DNA from: Caldilineales bacterium
GTDB taxonomy: Bacteria > Chloroflexota > Anaerolineae > J102
Direction of reading: 5' to 3'
Length of the DNA stretch: 42,155 bases
Assembly: GCA_026417535.1 (NCBI GenBank)
Contig: JAOADB010000005.1
Coordinates: 1 to 42,155 of the forward strand
Shown here: piece by piece, positions 4,327 to 42,155 of the stretch
Numbering within the stretch: the first letter of the stretch is position 1
Layout: each line of letters starts with the position of its first letter
The notes under the pieces: model-generated
The model's database searches: none
Seen by the model: the letters and a program-made list of their open reading frames with translations, nothing else
Told to the model about the DNA's origin: nothing
Made by a program: the position numbers and the translations under genes

Positions 4327-4546
4327 TGATGATTAGTATGCCCCTGTCCATTGTATGACAAGGTGCCTTTGTGTCTGGTCGTTTTTGACTTTCGTTTTTT
4401 CGACGACTACTCAGACCGATGACGATGATGGCTCAGGTTCCGGCAGGGTTCCATCGCAGGCAGATTCGACGATATCACTCACCGGCTCTTCGGCCGATGG
4501 CAGGAGCATCGGCAGGAGGGCAAATAGCTCAAACAGGAGGGGTCTC

Positions 4547-6268
4547 ATGACATCCCCACGACGCATGCTCACGGCGGCGCTGACTTTGGCCCTGATGGTC
4601 ATGCTGATCGCCGTGGCGCTTACTTCACGTGCCAGTAACAGCGCTACCGGCGAATTGCTGAGTAACGGCGGCTTTGAACAGGGGTTCACGAACATTGCCG
4701 GGTGTGGGCTGGTAGGCAACGGCTGGGGCTGTTTTACGTCGGGTGGAGCGGCGTTCTACGGCTTCTACGATGAAACCTGGACGCCGGTCGTGGCAGGCGG
4801 CCGTCATGCCCAACTCATCGAGATCAACACCCGCAAGGATGCCACTGGGCCCAACAGCACCGCCGGTATCTACCAGACCGTGGCAGTGGTGCCCGGTCAG
4901 GTCTACGAACTGTCCTTCCAGGCCCTGATGCGGGCCGATGACCTCGACCGCGGGGGCGATCCCTGGCGCTATGTCATGTTGGTCGGCTTCGACCACGGCG
5001 GCGGTCGGGACTGGACCCGCGCTCAATGGCAGGAGGTGGATGTCGGTCCGATTCAGGATCGCACGAATCCAAGCGGTTATCACCCCGTGCGGCTCACGGT
5101 CAGGCCCCAAGGTCACCTGCTGACGGTCTTCATCGCCGGCCGCATGAAGTGGGGCGACTGGAACCGGGAGGTGGATTTCGATGTGGATAACGTCTCGTTG
5201 CGCGGGCCGCTGCCTCCGCGACGGTTGCCTACGCCCACCCCACCGCCTGTCGTCAAACCGCCGTCACCGCCAGCGCCGCCACCCACGGTGCCAGCGCCAC
5301 CGCCGCCATCGGTCCTGGTCTGCGATGGCCCTAACCTGGTTACGAACGGCAACTTCGAGGGCGGTTTCGACCCGACGGGTGTGGCCCGGTTCTGGGCGCC
5401 CTTCAATAACGGCGGCGCCGCCACCTACGGCTATTACGACGATACCTGGCCGCCGGTCGTGGCCGAAGGTCGCCATGCCCAGTTGCTCGAGATCAACACC
5501 TACAGTCGCACGGCCACCCATCCCGACCGCTTCATCGGCATCTACCAGCGCATCAGGGGCTTGCGGCCGGGAGCGGTCTATCGCATCAGCTTCAAGGCGA
5601 TGATCCGCGAGGAAGCGGACCACAGCGACGAAGACGCCTATCGCTACGAGGTCTACTGGGGCTATCGCGCCGGCTCGACGCCCATCACCGATGTGGCCCA
5701 GCTTACTCTGCGCCAGGGCGTGCCCGTGTCCGGCATTGGTTTGCGCACGGCGCCGGGTAGCTACAGCGCCTACAGCGCCACCTTCACGGCCACGTCTTCC
5801 GAGATGGTGCTGTACCTGCTTGGTCTGAAGAAGTGGGCCACCCTGGAGCGCGAGGTGGACTTCGACTTCGACGACGTGCAATTGCGGCCCTGCCGCACCA
5901 CCGGCGTGGTGCCGCCGCCTCCGCCCCCGCCGTCGGTCTGCACTTACGTCGTCAAGCGAGGCGACACCCTGAGCGCCATTGCCCGTCGCTTCCGCACCAC
6001 CGTGGCCGACTTGGCCAAGGCCAATCGCATCGTCAATCCCAACCGCATCTTCCGCGGGCAGGTTCTCATCGTCCCCTGCGACCCGCCGGCCGTGACCGGT
6101 CAGGCCGATCCGCCGATCCATCAGGTGCATACGGTGCGTCGCGGGGAAACCCTCACCCAGATCGCCCGTCGCTATGGCACGACGGTGCAAACCCTGCGCC
6201 GGTTGAACGGGTTAGGCGCCGGCAGTCGCCTGCGTGCAGGACAGCAGATTCTCATTCCGGGCAGTTAG
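4547..6268 (+). CDS. Secreted/anchored protein with two tandem CBM_4_9-like modules, Pro-rich linkers and two C-terminal LysM domains
   Basis: ATG 4547 is preceded by AGGAGG (4535-4540). There is a signal/anchor segment MLTAALTLALMVMLIAVALTS. Two homologous modules run NGGFEQGF...GRHAQLIEINT...REVDFDVDNVSLR and NGNFEGGF...GRHAQLLEINT...REVDFDFDDVQLR. Two LysM motifs are present (YVVKRGDTLSAIARRF...GQVLIVP and HTVRRGETLTQIARRY...GQQILIPG). Confidence 0.85.
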   Translation: MTSPRRMLTAALTLALMVMLIAVALTSRASNSATGELLSNGGFEQGFTNIAGCGLVGNGWGCFTSGGAAFYGFYDETWTPVVAGGRHAQLIEINTRKDATGPNSTAGIYQTVAVVPGQVYELSFQALMRADDLDRGGDPWRYVMLVGFDHGGGRDWTRAQWQEVDVGPIQDRTNPSGYHPVRLTVRPQGHLLTVFIAGRMKWGDWNREVDFDVDNVSLRGPLPPRRLPTPTPPPVVKPPSPPAPPPTVPAPPPPSVLVCDGPNLVTNGNFEGGFDPTGVARFWAPFNNGGAATYGYYDDTWPPVVAEGRHAQLLEINTYSRTATHPDRFIGIYQRIRGLRPGAVYRISFKAMIREEADHSDEDAYRYEVYWGYRAGSTPITDVAQLTLRQGVPVSGIGLRTAPGSYSAYSATFTATSSEMVLYLLGLKKWATLEREVDFDFDDVQLRPCRTTGVVPPPPPPPSVCTYVVKRGDTLSAIARRFRTTVADLAKANRIVNPNRIFRGQVLIVPCDPPAVTGQADPPIHQVHTVRRGETLTQIARRYGTTVQTLRRLNGLGAGSRLRAGQQILIPGS

Positions 6269-6294
6269 GGCGTCGTCAGTCTGAGATGATGAAG

Positions 6295-6326
6295 GAAGGA
6301 CGGAGGACGAAACCCCTCCGTCCTTC
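6295..6326. repeat. GACG-rich hairpin (12-bp stem, 8-nt loop) between convergent genes; possible bidirectional terminator; heads copy B of the two-copy module
   Basis: 6295-6306 GAAGGACGGAGG is the reverse complement of 6315-6326 CCTCCGTCCTTC. It lies 27 nt after the stop at 6268. Confidence 0.8.
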
Positions 6327-6373
6327 GTCTTGCGTCCATCGTCCGGCGAGTGGCCGATGGCGAGAAGGGAAGA
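6327..6373 (+). repeat. Copy B of dispersed intergenic module
   Basis: GTCTTGCGTCC, then ATCGTCCG, then CCGATGGCGAGAAGGGAAGA (6354-6373), 19/20 identical to 65-84. Confidence 0.8.
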
Positions 6374-10417: not shown

Positions 10418-10463
10418 AGCGGTCGTTTCGTTGTGCGTCTCGTGAGCCAGGACGATGGACGAC

Positions 10464-10502
10464 GGACGAGAGACGGTGGAGATCGGCCACCGTCTCTCGT
10501 CC
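10464..10502. repeat. GACG-rich hairpin (16-bp perfect stem, 7-nt loop), 8 nt downstream of the 10511 stop; possible terminator / REP-like element
   Basis: 10464-10479 GGACGAGAGACGGTGG is the reverse complement of 10487-10502 CCACCGTCTCTCGTCC. Confidence 0.85.
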
Positions 10503-10510
10503 ATCGCCCA

Positions 10511-11224
10511 TCATCGCGATTCCGGGACTATCCATCCCTTGGGGGCCACCCGTTCTCCTTGCCCTGTGAGCAGCCCAATCCCTTGGCGCTGGGCTTCCTC
10601 GATCGCACTGCGGTCAACGCGAATTCCGAAGGCATATACCAAATAGGGCCCTGTCACCTGTCGTTTGGCCAAGCGGCGTTGCCACCCCTCTGACTTCATC
10701 CGATCCGCCCAGGCGCGCACATCGTTCTGGCTCAGACGGGCCTTGGCCTCCACAACCGCCCAAAGAATCTCCCGGTCGGGCGTAGCGACCGGCAACACCA
10801 CATCCAGTTCTCCATCCAGGGCCAGATTGAAGGACTCACCGAGAGGACGGTAGCCCTTTTCTTCCAACACCGAGCGGAGGACTCCGCTGGCCTCGTCTTC
10901 CACGGTGGCGCCGAAGATGGCTTTGAACTGGCCGAACTCCTTTTCCAGTTTGGCGTGAGACTCGCTCAGTTTTTGCAGGCTTATTTCGGTGCGGCGCTGG
11001 GCCTCGGCGAGTTCGGCCATGGCGATTTCGAGTCGTCCGACGCGTTCCTCGGTGCGGCGCTGGGCCTCGGCGAAGGCGCGTTGCTCCTCGCCTAACTGGC
11101 GAACCAGGGCCGGAAGTTCCAGAATTTCATCGGTCAGCACCAGCCGCCGAATTTCGGCCCGCCATTCGGGGTAGTCGTAAAGCAAGCGTACCAGATCGTG
11201 AAAGTCCGTTACCGTGAAAGGCAT
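10511..11224 (-). CDS. Coiled-coil protein with C-terminal PD-(D/E)XK-like nuclease fold (DUF3782-like by memory), 237 aa
   Basis: The N-terminus reads DLVRLLYDYPEWRAEIRRLVLTDEILELP, followed by a coiled coil with a repeated AEAQRRTE. The C-terminal half has LDGELDVVLP...ILWAVVEAKARL, which fits a D...E-x-K nuclease motif. It has its own promoter at 11259-11287. Confidence 0.6.
   Translation of the reverse strand: MPFTVTDFHDLVRLLYDYPEWRAEIRRLVLTDEILELPALVRQLGEEQRAFAEAQRRTEERVGRLEIAMAELAEAQRRTEISLQKLSESHAKLEKEFGQFKAIFGATVEDEASGVLRSVLEEKGYRPLGESFNLALDGELDVVLPVATPDREILWAVVEAKARLSQNDVRAWADRMKSEGWQRRLAKRQVTGPYLVYAFGIRVDRSAIEEAQRQGIGLLTGQGERVAPKGWIVPESR
10986..11073. repeat. 25-nt perfect direct repeat, 63 nt apart, in frame inside the 10511..11224 gene
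   Basis: TCGGTGCGGCGCTGGGCCTCGGCGA occurs at 10986-11010 and again at 11049-11073. It encodes the duplicated AEAQRRTE segment. Confidence 0.85.
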
Positions 11225-13798: not shown

Positions 13799-13868
13799 AG
13801 TAACCAGTAACCAGTAACTAGTAACTAGTAACTGGTTACTAGTTACTAGTTACTGGTTACTGGTTACT
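13799..13868. repeat. 70-nt perfect palindrome built from ten heptads (AGTAACC x2, AGTAACT x3 / GGTTACT, AGTTACT x2, GGTTACT x2) in the mrpE-mrpF spacer
   Basis: 13799-13832 AGTAACCAGTAACCAGTAACTAGTAACTAGTAAC is the exact reverse complement of 13835-13868. The centre is TG (13833-13834). I verified this base by base. Confidence 0.97.
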
Positions 13869-22534: not shown

Positions 22535-22601
22535 CACATGAACAGGAACGGTTTTCGTCCCGTGGCTTCCCTCTCGGTAAACGGCTCAAGATCGGCACGA
22601 A

Positions 22602-22656
22602 GGACGGAATGCGAACGACGAAAAGCTCTTGGTCTTCCGTCGTTCGTCTTCCGTCT
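22602..22656. repeat. Imperfect GACG-rich hairpin downstream of the 22707 stop; carries motif GGACGGAATGCGAACGACG
   Basis: The inner stem GAACGACG (22613-22620) pairs with CGTCGTTC (22638-22645). The outer stem GACGGAA (22603-22609) pairs with TTCCGTC (22649-22655), with mismatches in between. Confidence 0.7.
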
Positions 22657-31052: not shown

Positions 31053-31964
31053 TTATTCGTGGCGATAGATGGCGCGGAGTTCTTCCGGGGCTTGGGCGAC
31101 CTTGAGATGCGTCAAAACGGCCCGCAGCAGGCCGACATCCTGGATGGCGGTGATTTCGGGCAATAGCCGCAGACCCGCAGCGCCAAAGCGTAATTCCAGG
31201 CCCACGGCAATGGCTTCCAGTAACCCGGTGCGCAGGCCCTCTTGCAGGCCCTTCGCCAGGCCTTCCTGCAGGCCCTTCGCCAGGCCCTCCTGGAGGCCCT
31301 TTTCCAGGCCCTCTTGCAGGCCTTCTTCCTTGATCATCTGATAGGCGTAGGATTCGACCATGATGTCCCTCCGTTTGGCGAACAGTTGGGCAGACAGTTG
31401 GCGTGAAACCAGACCCGACATAATGGCCAGGACGGTCAACATGTCCACCTTGTCGTCTCGTGGCAACTCGCTCTCGTAGAGCAAGCGGTCGGCCTGTTCG
31501 GCCCAGCGCAGGCCATCTCGCATGAGCGGCACGAGGGGTAACAAACACACCACGCCCTCGGCGATGATGGCCGCAGCGTCGAGTTCGTAGACCTTGATGA
31601 GCTGAAAGCGATAAGTGACCTCGTTGTCCTGATAGAAATCAACGGCCGCTTGCGAAGGCCGCAACAGGAGCACACCGCTCAGGGTTTCCTCGTCATGGAG
31701 GATTTTGTAGCGGGTGCGGTATTCCAGAAGCCGCAGGGGCAGCAGGGGGTCCCATTTGCTCTGGAGTTCGAGCACAACGAGGAAGCGTTGCCCGTCCTCG
31801 GTGTGCACCAGGAGGGGATAATCGCTGCGGCGGAGGGTAGTGGTCTCCTGGGGCAGCAGTTCGAGGACGGTGCCGGCGGTGACGGGGATGCCGAAGAAAC
31901 GGCGGAGGATTTTGCTGCTGCAGCGGGCGAGGAGCACCTTGGCAGCGATGTCGTAGGGTGTCAT
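31053..31964 (-). CDS. Rpn-family recombination-promoting nuclease / putative transposase (PD-(D/E)XK N-domain + DUF4351-like C-domain), 303 aa
   Basis: Contains RSDYPLLVHTEDGQRFLVVLELQSKWDPLLPLRLLEY (D...E-x-Q-x-K nuclease core), a C-terminal (QEGLxKGL)x4 repeat and LLRAVL...APEEL. From memory this matches the YhgA/Rpn family. Confidence 0.7.
   Translation of the reverse strand: MTPYDIAAKVLLARCSSKILRRFFGIPVTAGTVLELLPQETTTLRRSDYPLLVHTEDGQRFLVVLELQSKWDPLLPLRLLEYRTRYKILHDEETLSGVLLLRPSQAAVDFYQDNEVTYRFQLIKVYELDAAAIIAEGVVCLLPLVPLMRDGLRWAEQADRLLYESELPRDDKVDMLTVLAIMSGLVSRQLSAQLFAKRRDIMVESYAYQMIKEEGLQEGLEKGLQEGLAKGLQEGLAKGLQEGLRTGLLEAIAVGLELRFGAAGLRLLPEITAIQDVGLLRAVLTHLKVAQAPEELRAIYRHE
31236..31331. 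repeat. Four imperfect 24-nt tandem repeats inside the Rpn gene (encode QEGLxKGL units)
   Basis: The units are GCCCTCTTGCAGGCCCTTCGCCAG / GCCTTCCTGCAGGCCCTTCGCCAG / GCCCTCCTGGAGGCCCTTTTCCAG / GCCCTCTTGCAGGCCTTCTTCCTT. Confidence 0.9.
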
Positions 31965-32011
31965 GATGCCCTTCCGAGGAGAGGAGTGGTTCGGTCGGGT
32001 GGTACAAGGCT

Positions 32012-32020
32012 ATTGTAGCA
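32012..32020 (-). promoter_or_regulatory. Extended -10 element (TGCTACAAT) upstream of the Rpn gene
   Basis: The minus strand reads TGCTACAAT, the same 9-mer as at 38946-38954. GGAAGGG lies 5 nt before ATG 31964. No clear -35. Confidence 0.4.
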
Positions 32021-32179
32021 TAAATCCTCGTCCCCGTTGCGCTTCCGCGCGCCATCCCTTCCCCATCTTGCCAAACCGGACGAAGGCGAACAAACAACGA
32101 CGGGTGGTCCCAACTTCGTTTTCCGTCCTTCATCCCCCTTTGTCGGCTCCGCTCGGGGCGGCGGGCCAATGCCGACACC

Positions 32180-35100
32180 CTACATGTCAAACAGGCTGAG
32201 CTGCTCGGCGACCGGCCGCGAGGGCGGCCGTGAGGGGCGGTCGTCGCGTTCGAGCTGCTTGAGCGCGGCGGCGATGTCGTCGAGAAAGCGGCTGGGTTGG
32301 GGGCGGAGCTGTTGGCCGAAGAGAAAACGGCTGCGGGCGTAGGTGAGGATAAGCCGACGCCGGGCCCGCGTCATGCCGACGTAAAAGAGCCGCCGTTCCT
32401 CGGCTACATCGGTCGTCTTGCCCTCGCGGAGGTAGGGCAAAAGACCCTCTTCGCAGCCGACGATGAACACGACAGGAAACTCCAGACCCTTGGCCGCATG
32501 GAGCGTCATCAGCGCGACTCGGTCGGCGCGCGGGTCGTAGGCATCGGCCTCGGTGTACAGGGCCATCGCTTCCAGAAAGGCCTGCGGGTCGGCGCCGAAA
32601 TCCAGGCTGCGACGGACAAGCTGTTGTAACCGCTCTCGATCGGCGGCGCTCAACCGTCCCCGGTCCAGGTCGGCGGCAATCCGCTCCAACAATCCGGCCA
32701 CCGGCGCCGGGTCGGGACGCGCGGCGTCTCGCTCGAGTCGTCGTAGCCGTTCCAGGGCCTCTTGTACGACCCGATAGGCCGTCAGCGGCGTTTGACCCAC
32801 CACCTGATAGGGGAAACCTGCCCGCTCGAATGCCTCGACTAAGGCCTGGTTCTGCCCGTGCACGCGATAGAGCACGGCGAAATCGGCAAAACCCTGCGCC
32901 GTGGCCTCGTGACCGGTGGCCCGACCCGAATCGAGGGCAAAGTAGCTGCTCCCGCCCAGCATCCCCTCGATCTGGCGGACGACGAACTCGGCCTCGGCTC
33001 GCTCTGTGGCAGCCGCGTGGACGGTCACCCGCACCGCATCGGTGAACTCCGACCACAACCGCGGCGACTGCCAGGGCGCCTCGCGGGCGATGACCTGGCC
33101 GGCGGCATCGAGAATGAGCTGGGTAGAGCGGTAATTCTGCTCCAGGACGAGCTGCCGTGCCTGTGGATAGTCCTCGGTGAAACGAAGGAAATAGCGATGG
33201 TCGGCCCCGCGAAAGCCGTAAATGGCCTGATTGGGGTCGCCGATGACGCACAGATTGGCGCCATCGGCCGTCAGCAGCCGCAACAGCCGGTATTGGGCCA
33301 GGTTGATATCCTGGTACTCGTCCACGGCGATCCAGCGATAGCGCGCCTGCAAGGCTGCCAGCACATCGGGGTGTTCCTCCAACAGTCGCACGGTCAGGAA
33401 AACCAGATCGTCGAAATCCACGGCCCCGTGCCGGCGCAATTCGGCTTGATAGTCCCGATAGGCCGCCATGAAATCGGGATCGGCGGCAAAGCCCACCTCT
33501 TCGGATCCCGTCGTCGCTCCCGCTTCAGGGGACACGAGGCGATTCTTGGCCACGGTGATTTGCTCCAACAGGGCCGCAACGGCTTCGGCCGAGCGATCGG
33601 GTCGACAACGGGTCAGCCATTCCCGACGCTCATCCTCCGTCAGAATGACGAAATGCGGGTCCAGACCGACAAGGGCCGCCCATTGCCGCAGGACTTGGGC
33701 GCCAAAGGCATGGAAGGTCTTGATGGTCAGTCGCGCCGTTGTCTCGGCGCCGAGCAAGGCCGTTAGCCGCGTGGCCATTTCTCCGGCCGCCTTGTTCGTA
33801 AACGTGATGGCCAGGATGGACTCGGGCGCCACGCCCAGAACCCGCACCAGGTAGGCGATGCGGGTGGTGAGGGTGCGGGTTTTGCCCGTGCCGGGGCCGG
33901 CCACGATGACCAGCGGCCGGTCCGTGCAGAGCACGGATTCGCGTTGGGCCGGGTTGAGGCCCGCCAGCAGGTCATCGGCGACCGGCGGCGTTGGCCATGG
34001 GAAGCCCGGTTGAGAAGGCGATATGACCGGCGCAACCGTCGGCCGCAGCGTTGGCACGGCCACAGGCGCCTCGAAGCGCGGGGGCGGTTCCTGTACGGTC
34101 GGCGCGACCTCGTCGAACAAATCGGGTTGCCGAGGGCCGCTCTCGGCTTCTGCGGCGAAGACCCGGATGACCCCGTACTCGCCATCGTAGCCGGGGATGG
34201 TGGTCACCTCTCCGCGGCGCATACGGCCGATGCCGACGGCCAGCCTGTCGCCGCCGACGGCAGCGATGGCCTCCAGGGGCAGGTCGAGCAGAATGCTCAG
34301 CTCCGGGCCGAGGGTGGCCAGTAACCGCTCGTAGGCCTGCGCCACGACCTTGCCGCCGCCGACGCCGTGGAGCTCGGCCAGCAACTCGGGCAGGGGGATC
34401 AGGCGGTAGTAGGGCGCGGCTCCGGGCTTGGGTTCCCCTTCGGGCCGGTCGGCCAGGGTTTCGACCCGGTGATAGACGCCCACCGTGACCGGTTTGCCGC
34501 AGACAGGACAAAGGCCCCCGTGGGCCAGGGTCGTGGCCGGTTCCCAACGCACCCCGCATTGGCGATGGCCGTCGTAGTGGTATTTGCCTTCTTCCGGGAA
34601 AAACTCGATGGTGCCGCCGAAGCAGGTCGGGTCGGCGCGACGCATGGCCACGAAGATGGCATCGTAGCTCAGCTCGCCTGTGAACAGGGTGGCCTCGCGA
34701 CCCAGTTTGGCCGGCGAGTGGGCATCCGAATTCGAAACCAGGGTATAGCGGTCCAGCCCGGACACGCGCCAGTTCATGGGCGGATCGGAACTGAGGCCGG
34801 TCTCCAGGGCGAAGATGTGGCCTGTCAGGTCGCCGAAGCATTCTTCCACGCTGTCGTAGCCCGACATCGAACCGAGTAGGGCGAACCAGGGCGTCCAGAT
34901 GTGGGCCGGGATAAGATGGCAGCGCGGGTCTAGCTCCAGCAGGATCTCGAGCAGGTCGCGCGAAGGCAGGCCCAGGATGGGGCGTCCATCGCTGCGGATG
35001 TTGCCGATCCGTTCCAATCGCGCCTGCAGACGGCCCACCGTGACCAGGTCAGGTGCAAAAACGATATGGTGCACCTTGCGCGTCTTGCCGGCCTTTTTGT

Positions 35101-35392
35101 AGATGGTGCTGATCTCGCCGGCCAGGAGGAAACGGACCTCGCCTCGACAGGCCGGCGGCACCTGCGCGGCCACGATCCGGGCCAGATCGGGCTTGAGCCG
35201 ATACAACCCCGCCTCGGCCGGTTCCAGTTGGTCTTGCAGCTCTTGCAACCAGCCGGGATGGGTGATGTCGCCAGTGCCGACGACGTGCACGCCCTTGAGC
35301 TGGGCCCAGCGGGCCAGCTCGGGCAGGGTCAGGTCTTTGCTGGTGGCGCGGGAGTAGTGAGAGTGGATGTGCAGGTCGGCGACGAAGCGCAT
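32180..35392 (-). CDS. Fusion protein: N-terminal endonuclease-Q-like PHP nuclease (~aa 1-412) + Pro-rich linker + C-terminal UvrD/PcrA-type SF1 helicase (~aa 473-1070)
   Basis: The N-domain has MRFVADLHIHSHYSRATS, VHHIVFAP, IPAHIWTPWF, NSDAHSP and a Cys cluster (HRQCG...GGLCPVCGKP). The helicase part has AGPGTGKTRT (I), ILAITFTNKAAGEM (Ia), IAVDEYQDIN (II), VIGDPNQAIYGFRGAD (III), EQNYRST (IV), LMTLHAAKGLEFPVVFIV and RRLFYVGMTRARRRL (V/VI). ATG 35392 lies 7 nt after the regulator stop. Confidence 0.85.
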   Translation of the reverse strand: MRFVADLHIHSHYSRATSKDLTLPELARWAQLKGVHVVGTGDITHPGWLQELQDQLEPAEAGLYRLKPDLARIVAAQVPPACRGEVRFLLAGEISTIYKKAGKTRKVHHIVFAPDLVTVGRLQARLERIGNIRSDGRPILGLPSRDLLEILLELDPRCHLIPAHIWTPWFALLGSMSGYDSVEECFGDLTGHIFALETGLSSDPPMNWRVSGLDRYTLVSNSDAHSPAKLGREATLFTGELSYDAIFVAMRRADPTCFGGTIEFFPEEGKYHYDGHRQCGVRWEPATTLAHGGLCPVCGKPVTVGVYHRVETLADRPEGEPKPGAAPYYRLIPLPELLAELHGVGGGKVVAQAYERLLATLGPELSILLDLPLEAIAAVGGDRLAVGIGRMRRGEVTTIPGYDGEYGVIRVFAAEAESGPRQPDLFDEVAPTVQEPPPRFEAPVAVPTLRPTVAPVISPSQPGFPWPTPPVADDLLAGLNPAQRESVLCTDRPLVIVAGPGTGKTRTLTTRIAYLVRVLGVAPESILAITFTNKAAGEMATRLTALLGAETTARLTIKTFHAFGAQVLRQWAALVGLDPHFVILTEDERREWLTRCRPDRSAEAVAALLEQITVAKNRLVSPEAGATTGSEEVGFAADPDFMAAYRDYQAELRRHGAVDFDDLVFLTVRLLEEHPDVLAALQARYRWIAVDEYQDINLAQYRLLRLLTADGANLCVIGDPNQAIYGFRGADHRYFLRFTEDYPQARQLVLEQNYRSTQLILDAAGQVIAREAPWQSPRLWSEFTDAVRVTVHAAATERAEAEFVVRQIEGMLGGSSYFALDSGRATGHEATAQGFADFAVLYRVHGQNQALVEAFERAGFPYQVVGQTPLTAYRVVQEALERLRRLERDAARPDPAPVAGLLERIAADLDRGRLSAADRERLQQLVRRSLDFGADPQAFLEAMALYTEADAYDPRADRVALMTLHAAKGLEFPVVFIVGCEEGLLPYLREGKTTDVAEERRLFYVGMTRARRRLILTYARSRFLFGQQLRPQPSRFLDDIAAALKQLERDDRPSRPPSRPVAEQLSLFDM

Positions 35393-35399
35393 TGTGGGG

Positions 35400-36071
35400 T
35401 CAGGGGGTATTGTCGGAGGCAAGCAGGCCCAATTCGCGCGCCCGCAGGGCAGCTTGGGTGCGATCACGGGCGCCGATCTTGTTCAGGATGTTGGTGACGT
35501 AGTTTTTGACTGTGCCTTCGGCCAGGTACAGACGTTCGGCGATCTCGCGGTTGGTCAGGCCTTCGGCCAGCAACCGCAGCACCTCGTGCTCGCGTTCGGA
35601 CAGGGGTTCGGGCAACCGCGCTGGTGAGGATGGCGTCGGTCGCAAGCGGGCCAGCTCGGCCACGACCTTACGCGCGACCGACGGTTCGATGAGCACGCCC
35701 CCGGCCATGACGGTGCGGATAGCCTCGACCAGGTCGTGGACGGACACGTCCTTGAGCAGATAACCCAGCGCGCCCCCGCGCAGACCCTCGAACACGTACT
35801 CATCGTCGTCGAAGGTGGTCAGGATGATGACGCGGGCGCCCGGAAAACGGCCGATGAGCCGTCGGGTGGCTTCAACCCCGTCCATCACCGGCATACGCAC
35901 GTCCATCAGCACCACATCGGGCCGGAGTCGTTCGTAGGCGGTCAGCGCTTCCTCGCCGTTGCCGGCCTCGCCGACCACCTCCACGCCCGGTTCCAGCTCG
36001 AGCAGGGTGCGCAAGCCCTCGCGCATCAACCGCTGATCGTCCACCAGCAACACGCGGATGGTTTCAGGCAT
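35400..36071 (-). CDS. NarL/LuxR-family response regulator (REC + HTH), 223 aa
   Basis: Contains IRVLLVDDQRLMREGL...PDVVLMDVRMPVMDG (REC domain) and LSEREHEVLRLLAEGLTNREIAERLYLAEGTVKNYVTNIL (LuxR HTH). Its ATG overlaps the kinase stop (ATGCCTGA). Confidence 0.92.
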   Translation of the reverse strand: MPETIRVLLVDDQRLMREGLRTLLELEPGVEVVGEAGNGEEALTAYERLRPDVVLMDVRMPVMDGVEATRRLIGRFPGARVIILTTFDDDEYVFEGLRGGALGYLLKDVSVHDLVEAIRTVMAGGVLIEPSVARKVVAELARLRPTPSSPARLPEPLSEREHEVLRLLAEGLTNREIAERLYLAEGTVKNYVTNILNKIGARDRTQAALRARELGLLASDNTP

Positions 36072-37269
36072 GGTCCACCTCCGGCGGCAAGGGCAGGGTC
36101 ATCACGAGTTCGGCGCCGCCTTGGGGCCGCGGCCTTAGGTCCACGCTGCCGCCCAGATACTCGGCCCGCTCGCGTAGCCCGTGTAAACCGAAACCGCCAC
36201 CGGTGGCGTTTGGCCGCGGTCCCCGGCCGTCATCGGCCACGCTCAGGCTCACCCGATCGGTGCTCACGGCCAGCGTCAGCCAGACGTGGGTGGCGGCGGC
36301 GTGTTTTTGCACGTTGGTCAGCCCTTCCTGAGCGGCCCGGTAGAGGGCCAGGCGATGGGTGGCCGGCAGGTCCGGGAGGTCCGGCGGTAGGTTCAAGGTC
36401 ACTGCCAGACCTGTTGCCGTCTCGAATTCGGCCGCCAGACGGCGCAAGGCCGGTTCCAGCGGCAGGTCGGCCTCCAGCGGCGCCCGCAGCGCAGCCACGG
36501 TCTGGCGCAATTCGGTCAGGGCCGTGCGGATTTCCTCACGGGCGGCCGCGGCCATGCTCGCGGCCCGTTCGGGGTCGGTTGCGGCCAGCCGGGTGATGGC
36601 CTCCAGCTGTACGGCCACTACGGTCAGGCGATGACCCAGGGTATCGTGCATCTCGCGGGCTAGGCGATTGCGTTCCTCGGCCACAGCCAGGGCCTCGGCC
36701 TGGGCGGCGTAGGCCTGGAGACGGGTGTGGGCCTCTTGCAGTTCCTGCAGCAGGCGGCGACTCTCGGCCTGAGCGGCGTCGGCCAAGGCCGTTTGGGTAG
36801 CAAAGGCAGCGAAGAAGAAGTAGCCAGCGATGTAGATGAGCGCCGTCGCCAGGATGCCCAACAAACCGCCGCTCATGACCCAGAAGAGAATGACGGTGAC
36901 GGCGGCAAAGACACCCACCCAGGCATAACCGGTCTGCCGGGGGAAGCGCAGCATGACTTCCGGGCTGAGGACGAAGAAGAGGACGGCAAACCAGGGATTG
37001 GCCGGCGGCAGCACGATGAGGGCGCTGGTCAGGGTCGTGGCCAGGGCGACGTAGAGGTGGGGCGCCCGAACCTTGAAGCCGCCCAAGGCCCGGTCGGGCA
37101 AGAGGACGAGCAGGTCGAAGGCGGCCAGCAGCGCCAACCCTGCCCAGCGCAACGGCCGTCCGGGTTCCAGGAACACGACCAGGCCCAGCACCGTGATGGC
37201 GGCGATGACCACATAGACGCTGAGCAGGGCCGGTTCGATGCGCCGGGAGGAGGGGGTGAGGACGGGCAT
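36064..37269 (-). CDS. Sensor histidine kinase, HisKA_3 type (DesK/LiaS-like), multi-TM N-terminus, 401 aa
   Basis: The N-terminal ~160 aa are hydrophobic helices. These are followed by ERNRLAREMHDTLGHRL (H-box), QEGLTNVQKHA (N-box), DDGRG and GGGFGLHGLRERAEYLGG (G-boxes). Start at ATG 37269 (MPVLTPSS). Confidence 0.9.
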   Translation of the reverse strand: MPVLTPSSRRIEPALLSVYVVIAAITVLGLVVFLEPGRPLRWAGLALLAAFDLLVLLPDRALGGFKVRAPHLYVALATTLTSALIVLPPANPWFAVLFFVLSPEVMLRFPRQTGYAWVGVFAAVTVILFWVMSGGLLGILATALIYIAGYFFFAAFATQTALADAAQAESRRLLQELQEAHTRLQAYAAQAEALAVAEERNRLAREMHDTLGHRLTVVAVQLEAITRLAATDPERAASMAAAAREEIRTALTELRQTVAALRAPLEADLPLEPALRRLAAEFETATGLAVTLNLPPDLPDLPATHRLALYRAAQEGLTNVQKHAAATHVWLTLAVSTDRVSLSVADDGRGPRPNATGGGFGLHGLRERAEYLGGSVDLRPRPQGGAELVMTLPLPPEVDHA

Positions 37270-37275
37270 AGGTCT

Positions 37276-37281
37276 ATGATA
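37276..37281 (-). promoter_or_regulatory. -10-like hexamer TATCAT 6 nt upstream of the kinase ATG (possible internal, leaderless promoter)
   Basis: The minus strand reads TATCAT-AGACCT-ATG. The -35 is poor (TGGGAA), so confidence is low. Confidence 0.3.
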
Positions 37282-37338
37282 CTCCAGGTTGCGTCCTTTT
37301 CCCACCGGTTGGCAGAGTGGAGAAAACGGGACCAACAA

Positions 37339-37379
37339 CGAAGGACGGACGACGAAGCCCATCCGTCGTCCGTCCTTCG
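37339..37379. repeat. GACG-rich hairpin (16-bp perfect stem, 9-nt loop) between the membrane-protein gene and the kinase gene
   Basis: 37339-37354 CGAAGGACGGACGACG is the reverse complement of 37364-37379 CGTCGTCCGTCCTTCG. Confidence 0.9.
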
Positions 37380-37412
37380 CTCGACTTGAATCCGAAAGAC
37401 CGGGCCCTGTCT

Positions 37413-37931
37413 TCAGGAGCGGCGCCGCCAGAGGATCCAAAGCCCCAGGACGATGAGGATCGCAGGCCAGGCGTAGCCGATGATTTCCAGGATGCGGACG
37501 CCGGTCTCGCCGGCCAGGAGCAAACCGCCGATGACGGCCAGGATGCCGCCGGGGATGAGGGGCCACCATTGGGGTGTGTCGGCCGTGATCAGCGAGAGGA
37601 GGGCAATCAGGCCCCAGCCGGCGGCAAAGGAGAGCATGAAGACGGCGCCTTGCAGCGGTTCGGCGGCGTTGGCCAGTGGGCCTTGGAGCAGACCGATGCC
37701 CAGGCCAATGCCGGCAAGAATGCCGCCGGGGATGATCAGGCCGAAGGTGCGGGTGGCCAATCCCCAAATCAGGAACAAAGCGCCGAGGGCCGGCAGAAAG
37801 AGAAAGCCGAGGTTTTCCAGAAGCCCGAGTTGGGCCAGCAAGGCCAGAACGCCAATGCCAATGAGAATGATGCCGCCAATCAGGGCGGGCCGGTGCTGCG
37901 AGCGGTTGGGGGTGAGCGGTTGCGAGTTCAT
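37413..37931 (-). CDS. Small polytopic membrane protein with internal duplication (LiaI/LiaF-TM-like by resemblance), 172 aa
   Basis: Two similar halves: ALIGGIILIGIGVLALLAQLG...ALFLIWGL and PLIPGGILAVIGGLLLAGETG...ILIVLGLWILW. GGAGG lies 5 nt upstream of ATG 37931. The family call is tentative. Confidence 0.6.
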   Translation of the reverse strand: MNSQPLTPNRSQHRPALIGGIILIGIGVLALLAQLGLLENLGFLFLPALGALFLIWGLATRTFGLIIPGGILAGIGLGIGLLQGPLANAAEPLQGAVFMLSFAAGWGLIALLSLITADTPQWWPLIPGGILAVIGGLLLAGETGVRILEIIGYAWPAILIVLGLWILWRRRS

Positions 37932-37945
37932 GGTTTCCTCCGGGT

Positions 37946-37975
37946 GGTTTGTAACGGGTCAGGTTTTGTAACCTG
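37946..37975 (-). promoter_or_regulatory. Direct repeat GGTTTGTAAC / GGTTTTGTAAC plus inverted repeat CAGGTT-n4-AACCTG just upstream of the membrane-protein gene; candidate operator
   Basis: The direct repeats lie at 37946-37955 and 37962-37972 and the inverted repeat at 37960-37975, 15-45 nt upstream of ATG 37931. Confidence 0.3.
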
Positions 37976-38023
37976 TCACTTTCCAGCATAGCGCCCGGAG
38001 GTCACATGCACCAGTGCCGAAAG

Positions 38024-38893
38024 TCACGATGAAAGCATGGATTGAGGGTGTGACTTTACACTCACTCTCGACCTTCTGTGCCCCCACCACAGCGCCAGCG
38101 TTGCCAACAGCAGGACCAAGCCCAGGATGCCCTTGAGGACGTGTCGGTCCACCTGCGGCAACAGGGCCGTGCCGATGAGCACGCCGACGAGGGAACCCGT
38201 TGCCATGACCACGGCTACGAGGATAGCCGGCCGCGGCAGATGCCCCAGGGAGCGATAGGTCAGCGTGCCCATCGCCACTGTGGGCACCGAGGCGGCCAGG
38301 CTGATGGTACCGGCCTCTTGGATGGGCACGGCGAACAGGTAAAGCAGGGCCGGAATGCGCATCTCGCCGCCGGCTACGCCAAAAGCCGCGCTGACGAAGG
38401 CAACGGCCAAGCCCAGGAGGAACCCCGCCACGACTCGGACCCCGCCTTGGGGCGTCCAAAGCACGTGTTCGACCCCGGCGAAAGCCTCAAAAAGCATCCA
38501 CAACCCGACGAGGACGAGGTAAAAAACGATGGCGCGTCGGAGCAGGCTCGAGGCCAGACGATGGGCATACCGGGCGCCGGCCAGCGCGCCGCCAAGAGAA
38601 GCCGCGGCCAGCACTCCCATGAACGCCACATCGGCGAGGGTCCACGGATGCAGGCTCCAGCGCCGCAGCAGCGACAGCGTCACCGTGAACAGGCCGACCA
38701 GGAGGTTGACCGCCGCGGCCGTTTTCGGACGTTGTTTGAAGTAGTGGAGCAAAAGCGGCAACCGGAATTCGCCACCCCCGACACCGATAAGGCCGGCGGC
38801 CATCCCGGTGATCAGACCGAAACCCAAGGAGACGGCATACGGTAAGGTCGGAACGGCGACGGGGGTTTGAGAGCCGAGTTCGGTTTCGTTCAC
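38024..38893 (-). CDS. TauE/SafE-family (sulfite exporter-like) permease, 289 aa
   Basis: Contains GLITGMAAGLIGVGGGEFRLPLLL and a second half with AAFGVAGGEMRIPALLY, the two-repeat TauE pattern. GTG start 38893 is preceded by AAGGAGAGG. Confidence 0.8.
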   Translation of the reverse strand: MNETELGSQTPVAVPTLPYAVSLGFGLITGMAAGLIGVGGGEFRLPLLLHYFKQRPKTAAAVNLLVGLFTVTLSLLRRWSLHPWTLADVAFMGVLAAASLGGALAGARYAHRLASSLLRRAIVFYLVLVGLWMLFEAFAGVEHVLWTPQGGVRVVAGFLLGLAVAFVSAAFGVAGGEMRIPALLYLFAVPIQEAGTISLAASVPTVAMGTLTYRSLGHLPRPAILVAVVMATGSLVGVLIGTALLPQVDRHVLKGILGLVLLLATLALWWGHRRSRVSVKSHPQSMLSS

Positions 38894-39059: not shown

Positions 39060-40556
39060 ATGACCGCCTCCGTGTGTCCGTATCTGGGTTTGCTGGATGA
39101 TCCGGCTACCCATCTCAACTACCCCAGTTTCGAGAACCGCTGCTACGCTACGGTGGCGCGCGAGGCGATCCCGCTTTCCGAACAGGCCGTTTTCTGTCTA
39201 GGGGGACAACACACCGGCTGCCCGCGCTACATGGCCCTCCACGGCGCGCCGGCTGCGGCCGCCACGGCGCCTTTGCCGCCACCACCGATGGCGGCACCAT
39301 CGCCGACGGCGGGACCCGTCGGGTTTGCGCCTGCCTACGGGATGGGGCCGGGTCGCGATCGCTCCCTGGCCATCATCCTCGGCGGTATCCTTCTGGGCAT
39401 CTTCCTGTGCAGCGGTCTTTTGGCCGTTTATCTGAGCTGGCGGGCGCTGTTGGCCACGGCCTTGCCGCCCACACCCACGACGGCGCCGGTTGTCGTCGCG
39501 ACACCCACGCCCACGGCTGCCGTCATCGTCGTCGTGACGGCCACGCCTACCCCGACCGAAACGCTGCAGCCGGCCGACTCCATACCGCCTGCAACCGACA
39601 CGCCGACGCCGTTCCTGCCCACCGATACACCGATCCCTCCGCCCTTCCCCACCGACACGCCAACGCCTCCGTTTTTGCTGCCCACGGACACGCCGGAACC
39701 GGAGGAAACGCCGTTCCCGCCCACGCCGACGCCGCGGCCGTCGCCCACCATGACCCCGATTCCGGGGACGCCTACTTTTACTCCCACCGTCACGCCGACC
39801 TTCACGCCGAGCGGTCTCATCATCAATTTCACCGTGTCCAAGACGAGTATCGAACTTGGCCAGTGCGTGGTGCTGGCCTGGGATGTGCGCAACGCTCGCG
39901 AGGTGCGATTGGACAACGTAGTCGTTGCCGCTCTGGGGAGCCGGCAGGATTGTCCGACTAAGACGACCATCTACGAACTGCTCGTGGTCAGTCTGACCGG
40001 CGCCACGGAAAAACGCACCCTGACCGTGACCGTCCTGACGGGCACGCCTTCGCCCACACCCACTTTCACCGTTTCGCCCACGCCTTGGCCCACGGCCACG
40101 CCCACGCCTACGGCCACGCCCACCCTGACCAAGACGCCCACCCCTACGCCCACGCGCACGCCTACACCCACGCCGACGGCCACGTTTATCCCCACGCCCA
40201 CCCCGACCCGCGTCTTTGTGGATTGGGGCGCTGCACCCGAGTCCTACGACGGTCCCGGCCCCCATGTCACCATCATCCTGACCAACCGGGGCAACTCGGA
40301 CGACGGCATGGGCGTACGCTTGACCGTTCAGAACCTGCCCGCCGGCTGGCAGGTTGTCGTCTGCAACGGCGCCGGCAGTTGCGACGCCTTTCAAGTGAAC
40401 ACGTCGTGGTTGCCGCCGGGCCTGGCCGAGGCCGTGACGGTCCGTTTTACGATACCGCCGGAAGCCACCGATGTCACGGCTACGGTGACGGTGCAGGCCT
40501 GGTCGTTGCGCGATGGCTCGTTCCGACTGTCTATCCCCGTTACCGTCCGTCGTTAG
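39060..40556 (+). CDS. Single-pass membrane protein: cytoplasmic Cys/His-rich (Zn-ribbon-like) N-domain, TM helix, Pro/Thr-rich linkers, Ig-like and CARDB-like extracellular domains (498 aa)
   Basis: The N-domain reads CPYLGLLDDPATHLNYPSFENRCY...FCLGGQHTGCPRY. The TM helix is LAIILGGILLGIFLCSGLLAVYL. Long (TP)n tracts follow. The beta-rich modules are IINFTVSKTSIELGQCVVLAWDVRNAREVRL and HVTIILTNRGNSDD...VTVRFTIPPEA. Confidence 0.75.
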   Translation: MTASVCPYLGLLDDPATHLNYPSFENRCYATVAREAIPLSEQAVFCLGGQHTGCPRYMALHGAPAAAATAPLPPPPMAAPSPTAGPVGFAPAYGMGPGRDRSLAIILGGILLGIFLCSGLLAVYLSWRALLATALPPTPTTAPVVVATPTPTAAVIVVVTATPTPTETLQPADSIPPATDTPTPFLPTDTPIPPPFPTDTPTPPFLLPTDTPEPEETPFPPTPTPRPSPTMTPIPGTPTFTPTVTPTFTPSGLIINFTVSKTSIELGQCVVLAWDVRNAREVRLDNVVVAALGSRQDCPTKTTIYELLVVSLTGATEKRTLTVTVLTGTPSPTPTFTVSPTPWPTATPTPTATPTLTKTPTPTPTRTPTPTPTATFIPTPTPTRVFVDWGAAPESYDGPGPHVTIILTNRGNSDDGMGVRLTVQNLPAGWQVVVCNGAGSCDAFQVNTSWLPPGLAEAVTVRFTIPPEATDVTATVTVQAWSLRDGSFRLSIPVTVRR

Positions 40557-41712: not shown

Positions 41713-42155
41713 TCAACCGGGTTCGGCGCCGTCGGGCAAGAAGGCATACAGCTCCTCCGGGCGGCTCACGTCGAGAGCCGGGTCGAGCAGCTCGCTCAAT
41801 TCATCAGCCGAGAGACGATCCAGCCTGGCGACCAGCTCCTCCGGCACCTCGCCAAAGCGATGCCGGAGCACGCCCAGGAGCATCTTCAGCACTTTTTCGC
41901 GACCCTGCTGCAAACCCTGCTCCAGGCCCTGTTGCAAACCCTGCTCCAGGCCTTCGCTGAAAATCTCCTGATACCAGGGCGATTCACGGAGAACGACCAT
42001 ATCCCACCTCATGATGCGTCGAATGAGTTCGCTTGGAAAGACAAAACGGGCAAAAAACGCCAGCAACGTCTCCATCTCCGCCAGGTTCGGGTCGGCGCGC
42101 AACAGCTGCAACGCCTGCGCCAAGGCCCCGGCGTCGTTCCCACCCTGCATGACGG
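41713..42155 (-). CDS. Second Rpn/DUF4351-type paralog, 5'-truncated by the window edge (or a C-terminal fragment)
   Basis: Contains LRESPWYQEIFSEGLEQGLQQGLEQGLQQGREK...LRHRFGEVPEELVARLDRLSADEL. This parallels the C-terminal third of 31053..31964. The reading frame is still open at 42155. Confidence 0.6.
   Translation of the reverse strand, partial: VMQGGNDAGALAQALQLLRADPNLAEMETLLAFFARFVFPSELIRRIMRWDMVVLRESPWYQEIFSEGLEQGLQQGLEQGLQQGREKVLKMLLGVLRHRFGEVPEELVARLDRLSADELSELLDPALDVSRPEELYAFLPDGAEPG
41903..41950. repeat. Two 24-nt tandem repeats inside the second Rpn paralog (encode EQGLQQGL units)
   Basis: CCCTGCTGCAAACCCTGCTCCAGG followed by CCCTGTTGCAAACCCTGCTCCAGG. Confidence 0.9.

Follow-up and report, generated by a model that had tools for sequence, protein, structure and literature searches.

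The four genes described here probably form a Lia-like envelope- or membrane-stress module that lacks PspA and is organised in two transcription units, with a DNA repair gene that one narrow Caldilineales lineage has acquired as the last gene of the second unit. The EndoQ-UvrD fusion encoded by this last gene most likely rides along in the sensor-regulator operon as a passenger specific to the lineage. Comparison across about 170 related loci suggests that its position is a local accident of gene order, as opposed to a conserved connection of membrane sensing with DNA repair. The window (the whole stretch of 42,155 nucleotides analysed) comes from a hot-spring metagenome, and its host is a Chloroflexota (Caldilineales) bacterium; three metatranscriptomes of the same study yielded no usable coverage. 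Open reading frames and profile searches established the gene order, junctions and domains, and the coordinates, strands and domain matches bore out the four-gene arrangement given in the initial annotation. The features of the locus, in the direction of transcription, are the following:

37997-38040, minus strand: predicted operator/promoter motif of 44 bp, nnTGACCn6ATGACTTnnGGCACTn7ATGACC, in the window CCATGCTTTCATCGTGACTTTCGGCACTGGTGCATGTGACCTCC, with a -10-like TATGCT after it
37413-37931, minus strand: TM172, a membrane protein of the LiaI/LiaF-TM type, 172 aa, 6 TM segments, strong Shine-Dalgarno (SD) sequence GGAGGA
37339-37379, minus strand: stem-loop with a perfect 16-bp stem (37339-37354 / 37364-37379) and a 9-nt loop, then GTTGTTGGTCCCGTTTTCT
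37276-37281, minus strand: candidate -10 box of the kinase promoter P2, TATCAT, 6 nt before the kinase ATG
36064-37269, minus strand: intramembrane-sensing histidine kinase, 401 aa, ATG at 37269, about 6 TM segments, coiled-coil linker, HisKA_3, HATPase_c
35400-36071, minus strand: NarL/LiaR-type regulator, 223 aa, REC and GerE domains, SD GGAGGT, start overlapping the kinase stop
32180-35392, minus strand: EndoQ-UvrD fusion, 1070 aa, EndoQ (PHP nuclease and Zn finger) and UvrD/PcrA SF1 helicase
32077-32135, minus strand: imperfect GGACG-type hairpin, 45-100 nt past the fusion stop (fold prediction; weak T tract)

Hydropathy analysis of TM172 revealed six hydrophobic segments and an internal duplication in which LIPGGIL is present twice, as expected for the small protein with duplicated membrane segments noted previously. 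The Pfam models LiaI-LiaF-like_TM1 and LiaF-TM scored 24 bits, just below the 27-bit cut-off; LiaF-TM was matched by 13 of the 24 members of the TM172 family (best E = 5e-8), and a profile comparison with full LiaF gave a weak result (13.7% probability). TM172 represents the membrane part only, with no C-terminal toast-rack/DUF2154 domain, and a full LiaF is not encoded in the window. The protein is predicted to be a target or accessory component of the sensing system. The kinase has about six TM segments within residues 10-159, separated by short loops, and neither a HAMP nor an extracytoplasmic domain was detected by profile search or hydropathy, in keeping with its earlier description as a kinase with membrane helices only. 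The NCBIfam LiaS model covers just its catalytic half (62 bits against a 450-bit cut-off). DesK is the closest solved structure to the cytoplasmic core (E = 1e-19), a match that is unspecific because hardly any other HisKA_3 kinase has a solved structure. The regulator matched Response_reg (3.7e-29) and GerE (2e-20) in Pfam, and its best match among solved structures was LiaR/VraR (5hev, E = 4e-50), ahead of DesR (8e-35). As previously reported, the kinase stop overlaps the regulator ATG; the overlap spans 8 nt, ATGCCTGA at 36071-36064, and in the form ATGnCTGA it is conserved among loci.

The fusion protein aligned end to end over residues 5-411 with the EndoQ of Pyrococcus furiosus (5zb8; phmmer, E = 5e-56), including the PHP motif DLHIHSHYS, and matched TIGR00375 with E = 1.5e-42 and 146 bits, below the trusted cut-off of 327. 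Its C-terminal 600 residues carry UvrD-helicase (PF00580, 7.8e-77) and UvrD_C (PF13361, 5.3e-43), and the translation contains the helicase motifs GPGTGKT (Walker A) and DEYQD.

The module of membrane protein, kinase and regulator is widespread in Chloroflexota, where we found 80 genome loci with kinase orthologues of 41-77% identity and regulators 65-88% identical; about 74 of them retain the kinase-regulator pair. The conserved partners of the pair all lie upstream and are co-directional: a TM172 homologue immediately before the kinase (23/80 loci), ABC-2 transporter genes (about 30 loci, in which the kinase gene is immediately preceded by those for an ATPase and two ABC-2 permeases) or a cluster of LiaF/PspC/LiaI-like genes (10 loci). 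In 10 other genomes a full LiaF (LiaF-TM plus toast-rack) is encoded upstream of the orthologous kinase. The position of orthologous pairs directly behind full LiaF, PspC and LiaI-like genes, together with a regulator nearest to LiaR/VraR, supports the earlier proposal of a Lia-like intramembrane-sensing three-component system. Genes downstream of the regulator vary, with a DnaJ-like gene in 10 of the 80 kinase loci, MutS2 in 6 and the fusion only in one (L105). The neighbours in the window are TauE, TM172, EndoQ-UvrD and an Rpn-like gene; profile searches of the neighbours detected no desaturase or other lipid gene at the locus, and neither a PspA/LiaH gene nor an ABC transporter is encoded there.

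With a position weight matrix derived from 21 orthologous upstream regions, the putative operator was located at 37997-38040, where the score of 38.3 was the sole match of at least 10 in the 42-kb window (shuffled sequences reached a maximum of 11.6). The motif is present in 49 of the 80 kinase loci, about 28 of them outside the set used to build the matrix, always on the strand of the module and upstream of its first gene, which in the ABC-2 loci is the ATPase gene, and never after the regulator. The Firmicute LiaR/CesR box is TCAGHCTnnAGDCTGA (PMC4447274), unlike the array of ATGACy repeats in the window, and the motif is thus assigned to this regulator by co-occurrence only. We predict that it forms part of a regulator-dependent promoter, P1, of the TM172 gene.

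The hairpin at 37339-37379 likely acts as an intrinsic terminator or attenuator closing the TM172 transcript. In most loci the gap between TM172 and the kinase contains a strong terminator-like hairpin at the same place and of unrelated sequence; one relative (L079) has a clean T-run after the stem, another (L170) has the stem followed by TCTTTTTTTGC, and the window's own hairpin has a poor U-tract. The label 'REP-like' held in part: near-matches of the hairpin arm do recur in the window (13 against 0.9 expected by chance), and together they make up a GGACG-type hairpin family located at gene ends. Before the kinase ATG, a TAnnnT hexamer lies at a distance of 5-9 nt, mostly 6-7 nt, in 65 of the 80 loci, compared with 1 of 74 in the same test at regulator starts, and a -35 element TTGCCn is also present at many kinase loci. 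This position points to a leaderless kinase-regulator mRNA, and in the window the predicted transcript begins with the A of the kinase ATG (37269) and extends through the fusion. Hairpin and -10 box do set the first gene apart from the rest, as proposed, and both are conserved across genomes.

The fusion gene itself has a different distribution. EndoQ-UvrD is widespread as an independent gene (more than 100 full-length protein clusters, 598 metagenome stretches), and it follows the regulator in every examined relative at least 75% identical (L001-L005, L079, L105, L170 and L171) and in none at 65% identity or below (L006-L078, L080-L089 and L172). In this clade TauE and genes beyond it upstream are syntenic too, which makes conservation of the kinase-regulator-fusion triad at this level no more than general synteny. 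In the window the regulator TGA ends at 35400 and is separated from the fusion ATG at 35392, where the fusion homologues also start, by the 7 nt CCCCACA (35393-35399), which contain no GGAG-like SD element, exactly as the initial annotation had it. L001, L079, L105, L170 and L171 all have a tight junction, of 7-8 nt or, in L170, of 27 nt. Because a junction of 7-27 nt offers a promoter no room and persists in all close relatives examined, kinase, regulator and fusion are likely co-transcribed, and the fold predicted at 32077-32135 is the likely 3' end of their transcript. Retention of the triad and its tight junction down to about 75% identity is, on the other side, compatible with selection for linkage within the clade.

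From the sequences we infer a mechanism, including regulator binding, promoters, transcript boundaries, terminator efficiency, co-transcription and stimulus, that would operate as follows. The phosphorylated NarL/LiaR-type regulator would bind the ATGAC(C/T) repeat array at 37997-38040, P1 would drive TM172, and the strong hairpin would end this first transcript. The second unit would be expressed from a sigma-70-type promoter whose -10 box precedes the kinase ATG by 6 nt, yielding a leaderless mRNA on which kinase and regulator would be translationally coupled through their overlapping stop and start. In this lineage the mRNA would also carry EndoQ-UvrD, which would have neither promoter nor SD of its own and whose expression would follow that of kinase and regulator, at a basal level with at most a modest rise by read-through when unit 1 is induced. 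Judging from the domain families, the EndoQ domain would introduce a nick 5' of a deaminated or abasic base, from which the UvrD-type helicase would unwind the DNA. The fusion would be an operon passenger and not a conserved member of the regulon.

A different reading, in which membrane state or temperature, sensed by the DesK/Lia-like system, sets the level of EndoQ-UvrD, the gene having been recruited because base deamination rises with temperature in a hot-spring organism, seems rather unlikely. It would account for a junction of 7-27 nt, with no space for a promoter, being kept at 75-98% identity in several independent samples, and it fits the hot-spring source, the DesK-like topology and core of the kinase, and the action of EndoQ on deaminated bases (PMC4357722). 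Furthermore, because the U-tract of the window's hairpin is poor, read-through from unit 1 into the kinase-regulator-fusion unit could be substantial, in which case the fusion would be stress-inducible. That the operon recruited EndoQ-UvrD so that such read-through under stress, together with autoregulation, raises repair under heat or envelope damage is in our estimate unlikely; if true, membrane sensing would be wired directly to DNA repair in a thermophilic Caldilineales lineage. The distribution of the genes argues against functional coupling. The initial annotation, which regarded the nuclease-helicase as the output of the system, had made its case depend on conservation of the triad in fusion-bearing genomes, and that condition fails: we found the triad only at fusion identities of at least 75%, none of the 85 fusion loci at greater distance has it, and 79 of the 80 kinase loci lack it. 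The conserved operator precedes the membrane-protein gene and is never near the fusion; none of the 85 distant fusion loci contains the motif, and fusion loci lacking the two-component system gave 0 matches in 890 kb scanned in all. The leaderless P2 is kept whichever gene lies downstream, and TauE and the genes beyond it are as syntenic in the clade as the triad.

Mere adjacency, with the fusion expressed from its own promoter in the 3' part of the regulator gene or through non-SD translation and with no regulatory consequence, appears distinctly improbable. The missing SD, which had been taken as a sign of translational coupling, proved unspecific, as among 77 fusion genes whose aligned start is a start codon, those of the window's clade included, an SD is present in only 10; some fusion genes elsewhere have a -10 box just before the ATG, and the gene family thus often initiates without SD or coupling. 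The junction also differs among relatives, at 7, 8 or 27 nt, and so do the C-termini of the regulator. However, in the window, L079, L105 and L170 alike the fusion ATG is not preceded by a TAnnnT hexamer at leaderless distance, a consensus scan detected no sigma-70-like promoter inside the regulator gene, and no terminator-like hairpin lies between regulator and fusion.

The N-terminal 410 residues of the fusion align end to end with P. furiosus EndoQ (PDB 5zb8, 7k30; family TIGR00375 / PF27218); characterised EndoQ proteins are stand-alone and about 400 aa long, whereas here EndoQ is fused to a UvrD/PcrA helicase in one 1070-aa chain, which shares the UvrD-helicase and UvrD_C domains, Walker A and DEYQD with UvrD/PcrA/Rep SF1A helicases. 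HisKA_3/NarL pairs are found with ABC-2 transporters in LnrJK-LnrLMN and YvfTU-YvfRS of Bacillus subtilis, and about 30 of the 80 orthologous loci are of this type, unlike the window, which has no such transporter. With the DesK-DesR thermosensor of B. subtilis the system shares a multi-TM kinase without an outside domain, a NarL-type regulator and a continuous helix from the last TM segment into the HisKA_3 DHp domain, but it has no desaturase and its regulator is nearer to LiaR/VraR than to DesR.

The closest parallels are with LiaFSR/VraTSR of Firmicutes, which have in common with the window a NarL-family regulator, a HisKA_3 kinase that lacks an extracytoplasmic sensor domain and a LiaI/LiaF-TM-type membrane protein encoded directly upstream, and with other Chloroflexota modules full LiaF and PspC genes upstream. 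PspA-free Lia-like systems, in which LiaI-LiaF-TM, Toastrack and PspC occur beside a HisKA_3/NarL pair as here, are covered by Ravi et al. 2024 (PMC11237479), whose survey leaves the kinases and regulators themselves unanalysed. The window differs from Lia systems in the absence of a PspA/LiaH gene, in a kinase that lacks HAMP and has about 6 TM segments, where LiaS has HAMP and 2 TM segments, in a TM172 without the toast-rack domain of LiaF, in a kinase mRNA predicted to be leaderless and in a DNA repair gene closing the operon. In B. subtilis, liaIH and liaGFSR constitute an inducible target unit, a terminator and then a sensor/regulator unit whose expression is weak and constitutive. The layout predicted for the window by comparison among loci, a terminator-ended target unit followed by a sensor/regulator unit, parallels this arrangement.

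Four co-directional genes, all on the minus strand, lie at 32180–38040 of the window:

37413–37931, minus strand: TM172, a protein of 172 aa with six hydrophobic segments and an internal duplication
36064–37269, minus strand (ATG at 37269): kinase of 401 aa, with about six membrane segments followed by HisKA_3 and HATPase_c
35400–36071, minus strand: regulator with REC and GerE domains
32180–35392, minus strand: EndoQ-UvrD fusion of 1070 aa, the last of the four genes

The initial annotation had described these genes as a Lia/DesK-like module co-transcribed with the fusion gene, with a DNA repair or restriction activity as the suggested output of membrane or temperature sensing. Its gene layout and junctions were borne out: kinase and regulator overlap by 8 nt (ATGCCTGA), the regulator stop and the fusion ATG are separated by 7 nt (CCCCACA) without a Shine-Dalgarno sequence (SD), and a perfect 16-bp hairpin (37339–37379) and a TATCAT box (37276–37281) were found. 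As the arrangement recurs in five independent assemblies from a strain with 98% identity, an assembly artefact is ruled out. The runs that contain the sequence are hot-spring metagenomes; among named relatives, Caldilineales MAGs are nearest. In TM172, the duplication is seen in IIPGGILAGIGLG, which reappears as LIPGGILAVIGGL, and the Pfam models LiaI-LiaF-like_TM1 and LiaF-TM are matched at 24 bits, slightly below the 27-bit cut-off. Neither a HAMP nor an extracytoplasmic domain was detected in the kinase by Pfam and hydropathy, and its loops are short. Residues 5–411 of the fusion align with Endonuclease Q of Pyrococcus furiosus (PfuEndoQ; E = 5e-56), and residues from about 475 to 1020 constitute a UvrD/PcrA helicase. 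A GTG start at 35467, which would overlap the regulator, was rejected, since the alignments with homologues and with PfuEndoQ begin at the ATG at 35392.

A scan with one genome per species yielded kinase orthologues in 80 Chloroflexota loci (41–77% identity), with the regulator directly behind in about 74 of them (65–88% identity). The upstream side is conserved and co-directional, unlike the downstream one: the kinase is immediately preceded by a TM172 homologue in 23 loci, by an ABC-2 transporter (ATPase and two permeases) in about 30, and in 10 by a cluster encoding two LiaF-like proteins (LiaF-TM plus toast-rack), a PspC protein and a LiaI-like protein. Pfam LiaF-TM is matched by 13 of 24 members of the TM172 family (best E = 5e-8). 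When the family profile was compared with one full LiaF, the probability was only 13.7%, over 20 residues, so that the LiaF-TM assignment rests on the Pfam matches of family members; no solved structure matched the family. These upstream partners and LiaF-TM matches, together with the kinship of the regulator to LiaR/VraR and of the kinase to DesK, make the proposed envelope-stress-style three-component module a well-supported prediction. An earlier paper (PMC11237479) already describes associations of the LiaI-LiaF-TM/Toastrack/PspC type with two-component systems.

Downstream of the regulator, the fusion was found in only one of the 80 kinase loci (L105). Clades differ in the gene at this position (DnaJ-like in 10 loci, MutS2 in 6), and clustering of the ORFs after the regulator revealed no conserved partner, the largest cluster covering 9 of 74 loci. 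A gene for a 490-aa DnaJ-like protein occurs there in L094, L096, L098, L099, L101–L103, L108 and L113, and a MutS2-Smr gene in L110, L122, L136, L146, L148 and L159, starting in L136 about 26 nt past the regulator.

The fusion itself is widespread, with more than 100 full-length protein clusters among the matches listed (52–98% identity, mostly Caldilineae and Anaerolineae) and 598 confirmed stretches in a metagenome scan, one of them a human-gut contig at about 42% identity. When the window kinase, regulator and TM172 were searched by tblastn against 80 metagenome fusion loci (flanks of up to 6 kb) plus the distant loci L006–L009 and L172, all three were found in L079 only (77% fusion identity); loci at 61–65% identity carry an NrfD cluster, an HNH gene or others upstream. 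Adjacent kinase, regulator and fusion genes are thus kept in every examined relative at least 75% identical (L001–L005, 98%; L170, 90%; L079, 77%; L171 and L105, 75%) and in none of 85 fusion loci at 65% identity or less, which argues against DNA repair as the output of the system. Moreover, as the clade of the window also retains TauE and further upstream genes in order, conservation at this level says no more than general synteny. L006–L009 share a conserved small-gene set (DUF8196 and three others) downstream of the fusion. In the window, two genes (31053–31964 and 41713–42150) encode proteins with GLQEGLAKGLQEGL-type repeats, the first with a weak match to the Rpn family (recombination-promoting nuclease/putative transposase); one such gene lies immediately downstream of the fusion, a position that fits a rearrangement boundary. 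A 498-aa, extremely Pro-Thr-rich ORF (PTPTPT...) with one predicted membrane segment at 39060–40556 is followed by a SpoIIE/PP2C-like phosphatase gene; L001 retains this ORF, and in L105 the matching place is taken by an ORF of 569 aa.

Phylogenetic footprinting revealed a conserved block, nnTGACCn6ATGACTTnnGGCACTn7ATGACC, that precedes the TM172 start by about 90–130 nt and has a TAnnCT -10 box behind it. Trained on 21 loci, a position weight matrix scored 38.3 at 37997–38040, its sole match in the 42-kb window (shuffled sequences, 11.6 at most), and detected the motif in 49 of the 80 kinase loci, about 28 of these outside the matrix set. It always lies on the module strand, upstream of the first module gene, be it TM172, an ABC ATPase, LiaF or a gene of unidentified kind. 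In the 80 kinase loci it never occurred downstream of the regulator, nor before the DnaJ-like or MutS2 genes, and in 890 kb of fusion-derived loci it was absent from those without the two-component system. We infer that the motif is the predicted operator of the regulator at a target promoter, P1, in front of TM172. By inspection, the GGCAC element is not a sigma-54 site, as it lacks the GG-N10-GC spacing and many loci have no GC. The predicted TM172 5' UTR (37935–37990) contains a palindrome, CAGGTTacaaAACCTG, as well as GTTACAAA more than once; in relatives, other small hairpins take this position. Relative to L001, the window TauE ORF carries a 1-nt indel near its 3' end (38024–38060 versus 3660–3700 of L001), which adds about 13 aa so that the ORF enters the motif by 17 nt; either true variation or an assembly error may underlie the indel.

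The proposed separation of TM172 from the remaining genes by a hairpin and a -10 box also found support. In most loci a strong stem-loop separates TM172 from the kinase, the stem-loop sequences being unrelated; behind the stem there is a T-run in several (e.g. L079, L120, L148) and TCTTTTTTTGC in the 90% identical relative L170. This gap is a conserved position for a putative terminator. The window hairpin has a weak U-tract. It belongs to an intergenic hairpin family whose arms consist of short tandem GGACG/GACGA-type units (650–690, 6294–6341, 10451–10515, 22598–22655, 32077–32135, 37339–37379), the arm CGAAGGACGGACGACG having 13 near-matches versus 0.9 expected by chance; these hairpins could serve as terminators or mRNA-stabilising elements, or be REP-like repeats. 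AGTAACC units make up a perfect inverted repeat of 34 nt at 13799–13868. At the same intergenic position, relatives have comparable hairpins made from other 6–8-nt units, e.g. GGTAGATT in L099, L113 and L126, and L092 has an analogous intergenic hairpin with GAATCAGC.

A TAnnnT hexamer (TATCAT, TACAAT, TATAAT, TAAAAT) precedes the kinase ATG by 5–9 nt, mostly 6–7 nt, in 65 of the 80 loci, frequently accompanied by a TTGCCn -35 element. The same test was positive at 1 of 74 regulator starts, 13 of 84 fusion starts and 4 of 18 TM172 starts. This -10 position is the signature of a putative leaderless mRNA starting at the ATG. Longer kinase versions (a 432-aa gene call and a 641-aa ORF) were rejected, as the extension passes through the terminator hairpin, and the ATG and -10 box are conserved in those 65 loci. 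A leaderless start would account for the over-extension of the kinase through the hairpin by gene callers (432 versus 401 aa): the L001 call at 4383–5681 places its ATG in the hairpin loop (window 37270–37362), and the L170 call is of 400 aa. Many MAGs probably contain mis-annotated leaderless genes of this family. Fusion copies in L032, L051 and L054, with a -10 box 7–8 nt before the ATG, may be leaderless as well.

As the window has neither a promoter-like nor a terminator-like element between regulator and fusion, and no -10 box at leaderless distance before the fusion ATG, the fusion is most likely transcribed with kinase and regulator from the predicted kinase promoter, P2, on an mRNA ending near the imperfect hairpin at about 32077–32135. 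The missing SD, which had been taken to imply translational coupling, is not diagnostic: of 77 fusion genes in which the aligned start is a start codon, window clade included, 10 have an SD, and most fusion genes elsewhere likewise lack one. The fusion would then be expressed along with the sensor and regulator genes, a unit that in Lia-type systems is basal (B. subtilis liaGFSR), and read-through from P1 would be the sole route to its induction. Because the window hairpin has so weak a U-tract, a stress-inducible fusion is possible; nevertheless, with both the gene linkage and the operator motif absent from distant fusion loci, control of EndoQ-UvrD repair by membrane sensing appears improbable. 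Since the fusion loci compared outside this clade have neither linkage nor motif, the fusion is most likely a lineage-specific passenger. On 31900–38200, three small metatranscriptomes of the source study yielded short, scattered matches that stem from relatives. The sole near-identical RNA-library match of the locus is a 174-nt contig (microbial-mat metatranscriptome, run X11) with 98% identity to TM172 at 37601–37773, for which DNA carry-over is possible.

The observation and the Lia-like assignment stood, while repair as the system output found no support in comparative evidence; the locus comparisons do not reveal that membrane sensing and DNA repair are linked in general, which is worth knowing ahead of bench work. 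The fusion, widespread, uncharacterised and by its domain families a putative nick-and-unwind repair enzyme, is worth studying by itself, apart from the operon. Useful by-products are the operator motif, the comparative evidence for a leaderless kinase-regulator mRNA, and the three alternative upstream partner sets (TM172 family, LiaF/PspC cluster, ABC-2 transporter) of a Lia-like module widespread in Chloroflexota, mostly in class Anaerolineae including Caldilineales. To our knowledge, regulatory genetics is almost lacking for this phylum; the 44-bp operator/promoter motif, being sharply conserved, is usable for regulon prediction in these genomes and for the design of EMSA or DAP-seq probes.

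The operator motif differs from the Firmicute LiaR/CesR box described in the literature, which was therefore rejected as its identity. Among solved structures, the closest relative of the regulator is LiaR/VraR of Firmicutes (5hev, 4e-50) and that of the kinase core is DesK (1e-19).
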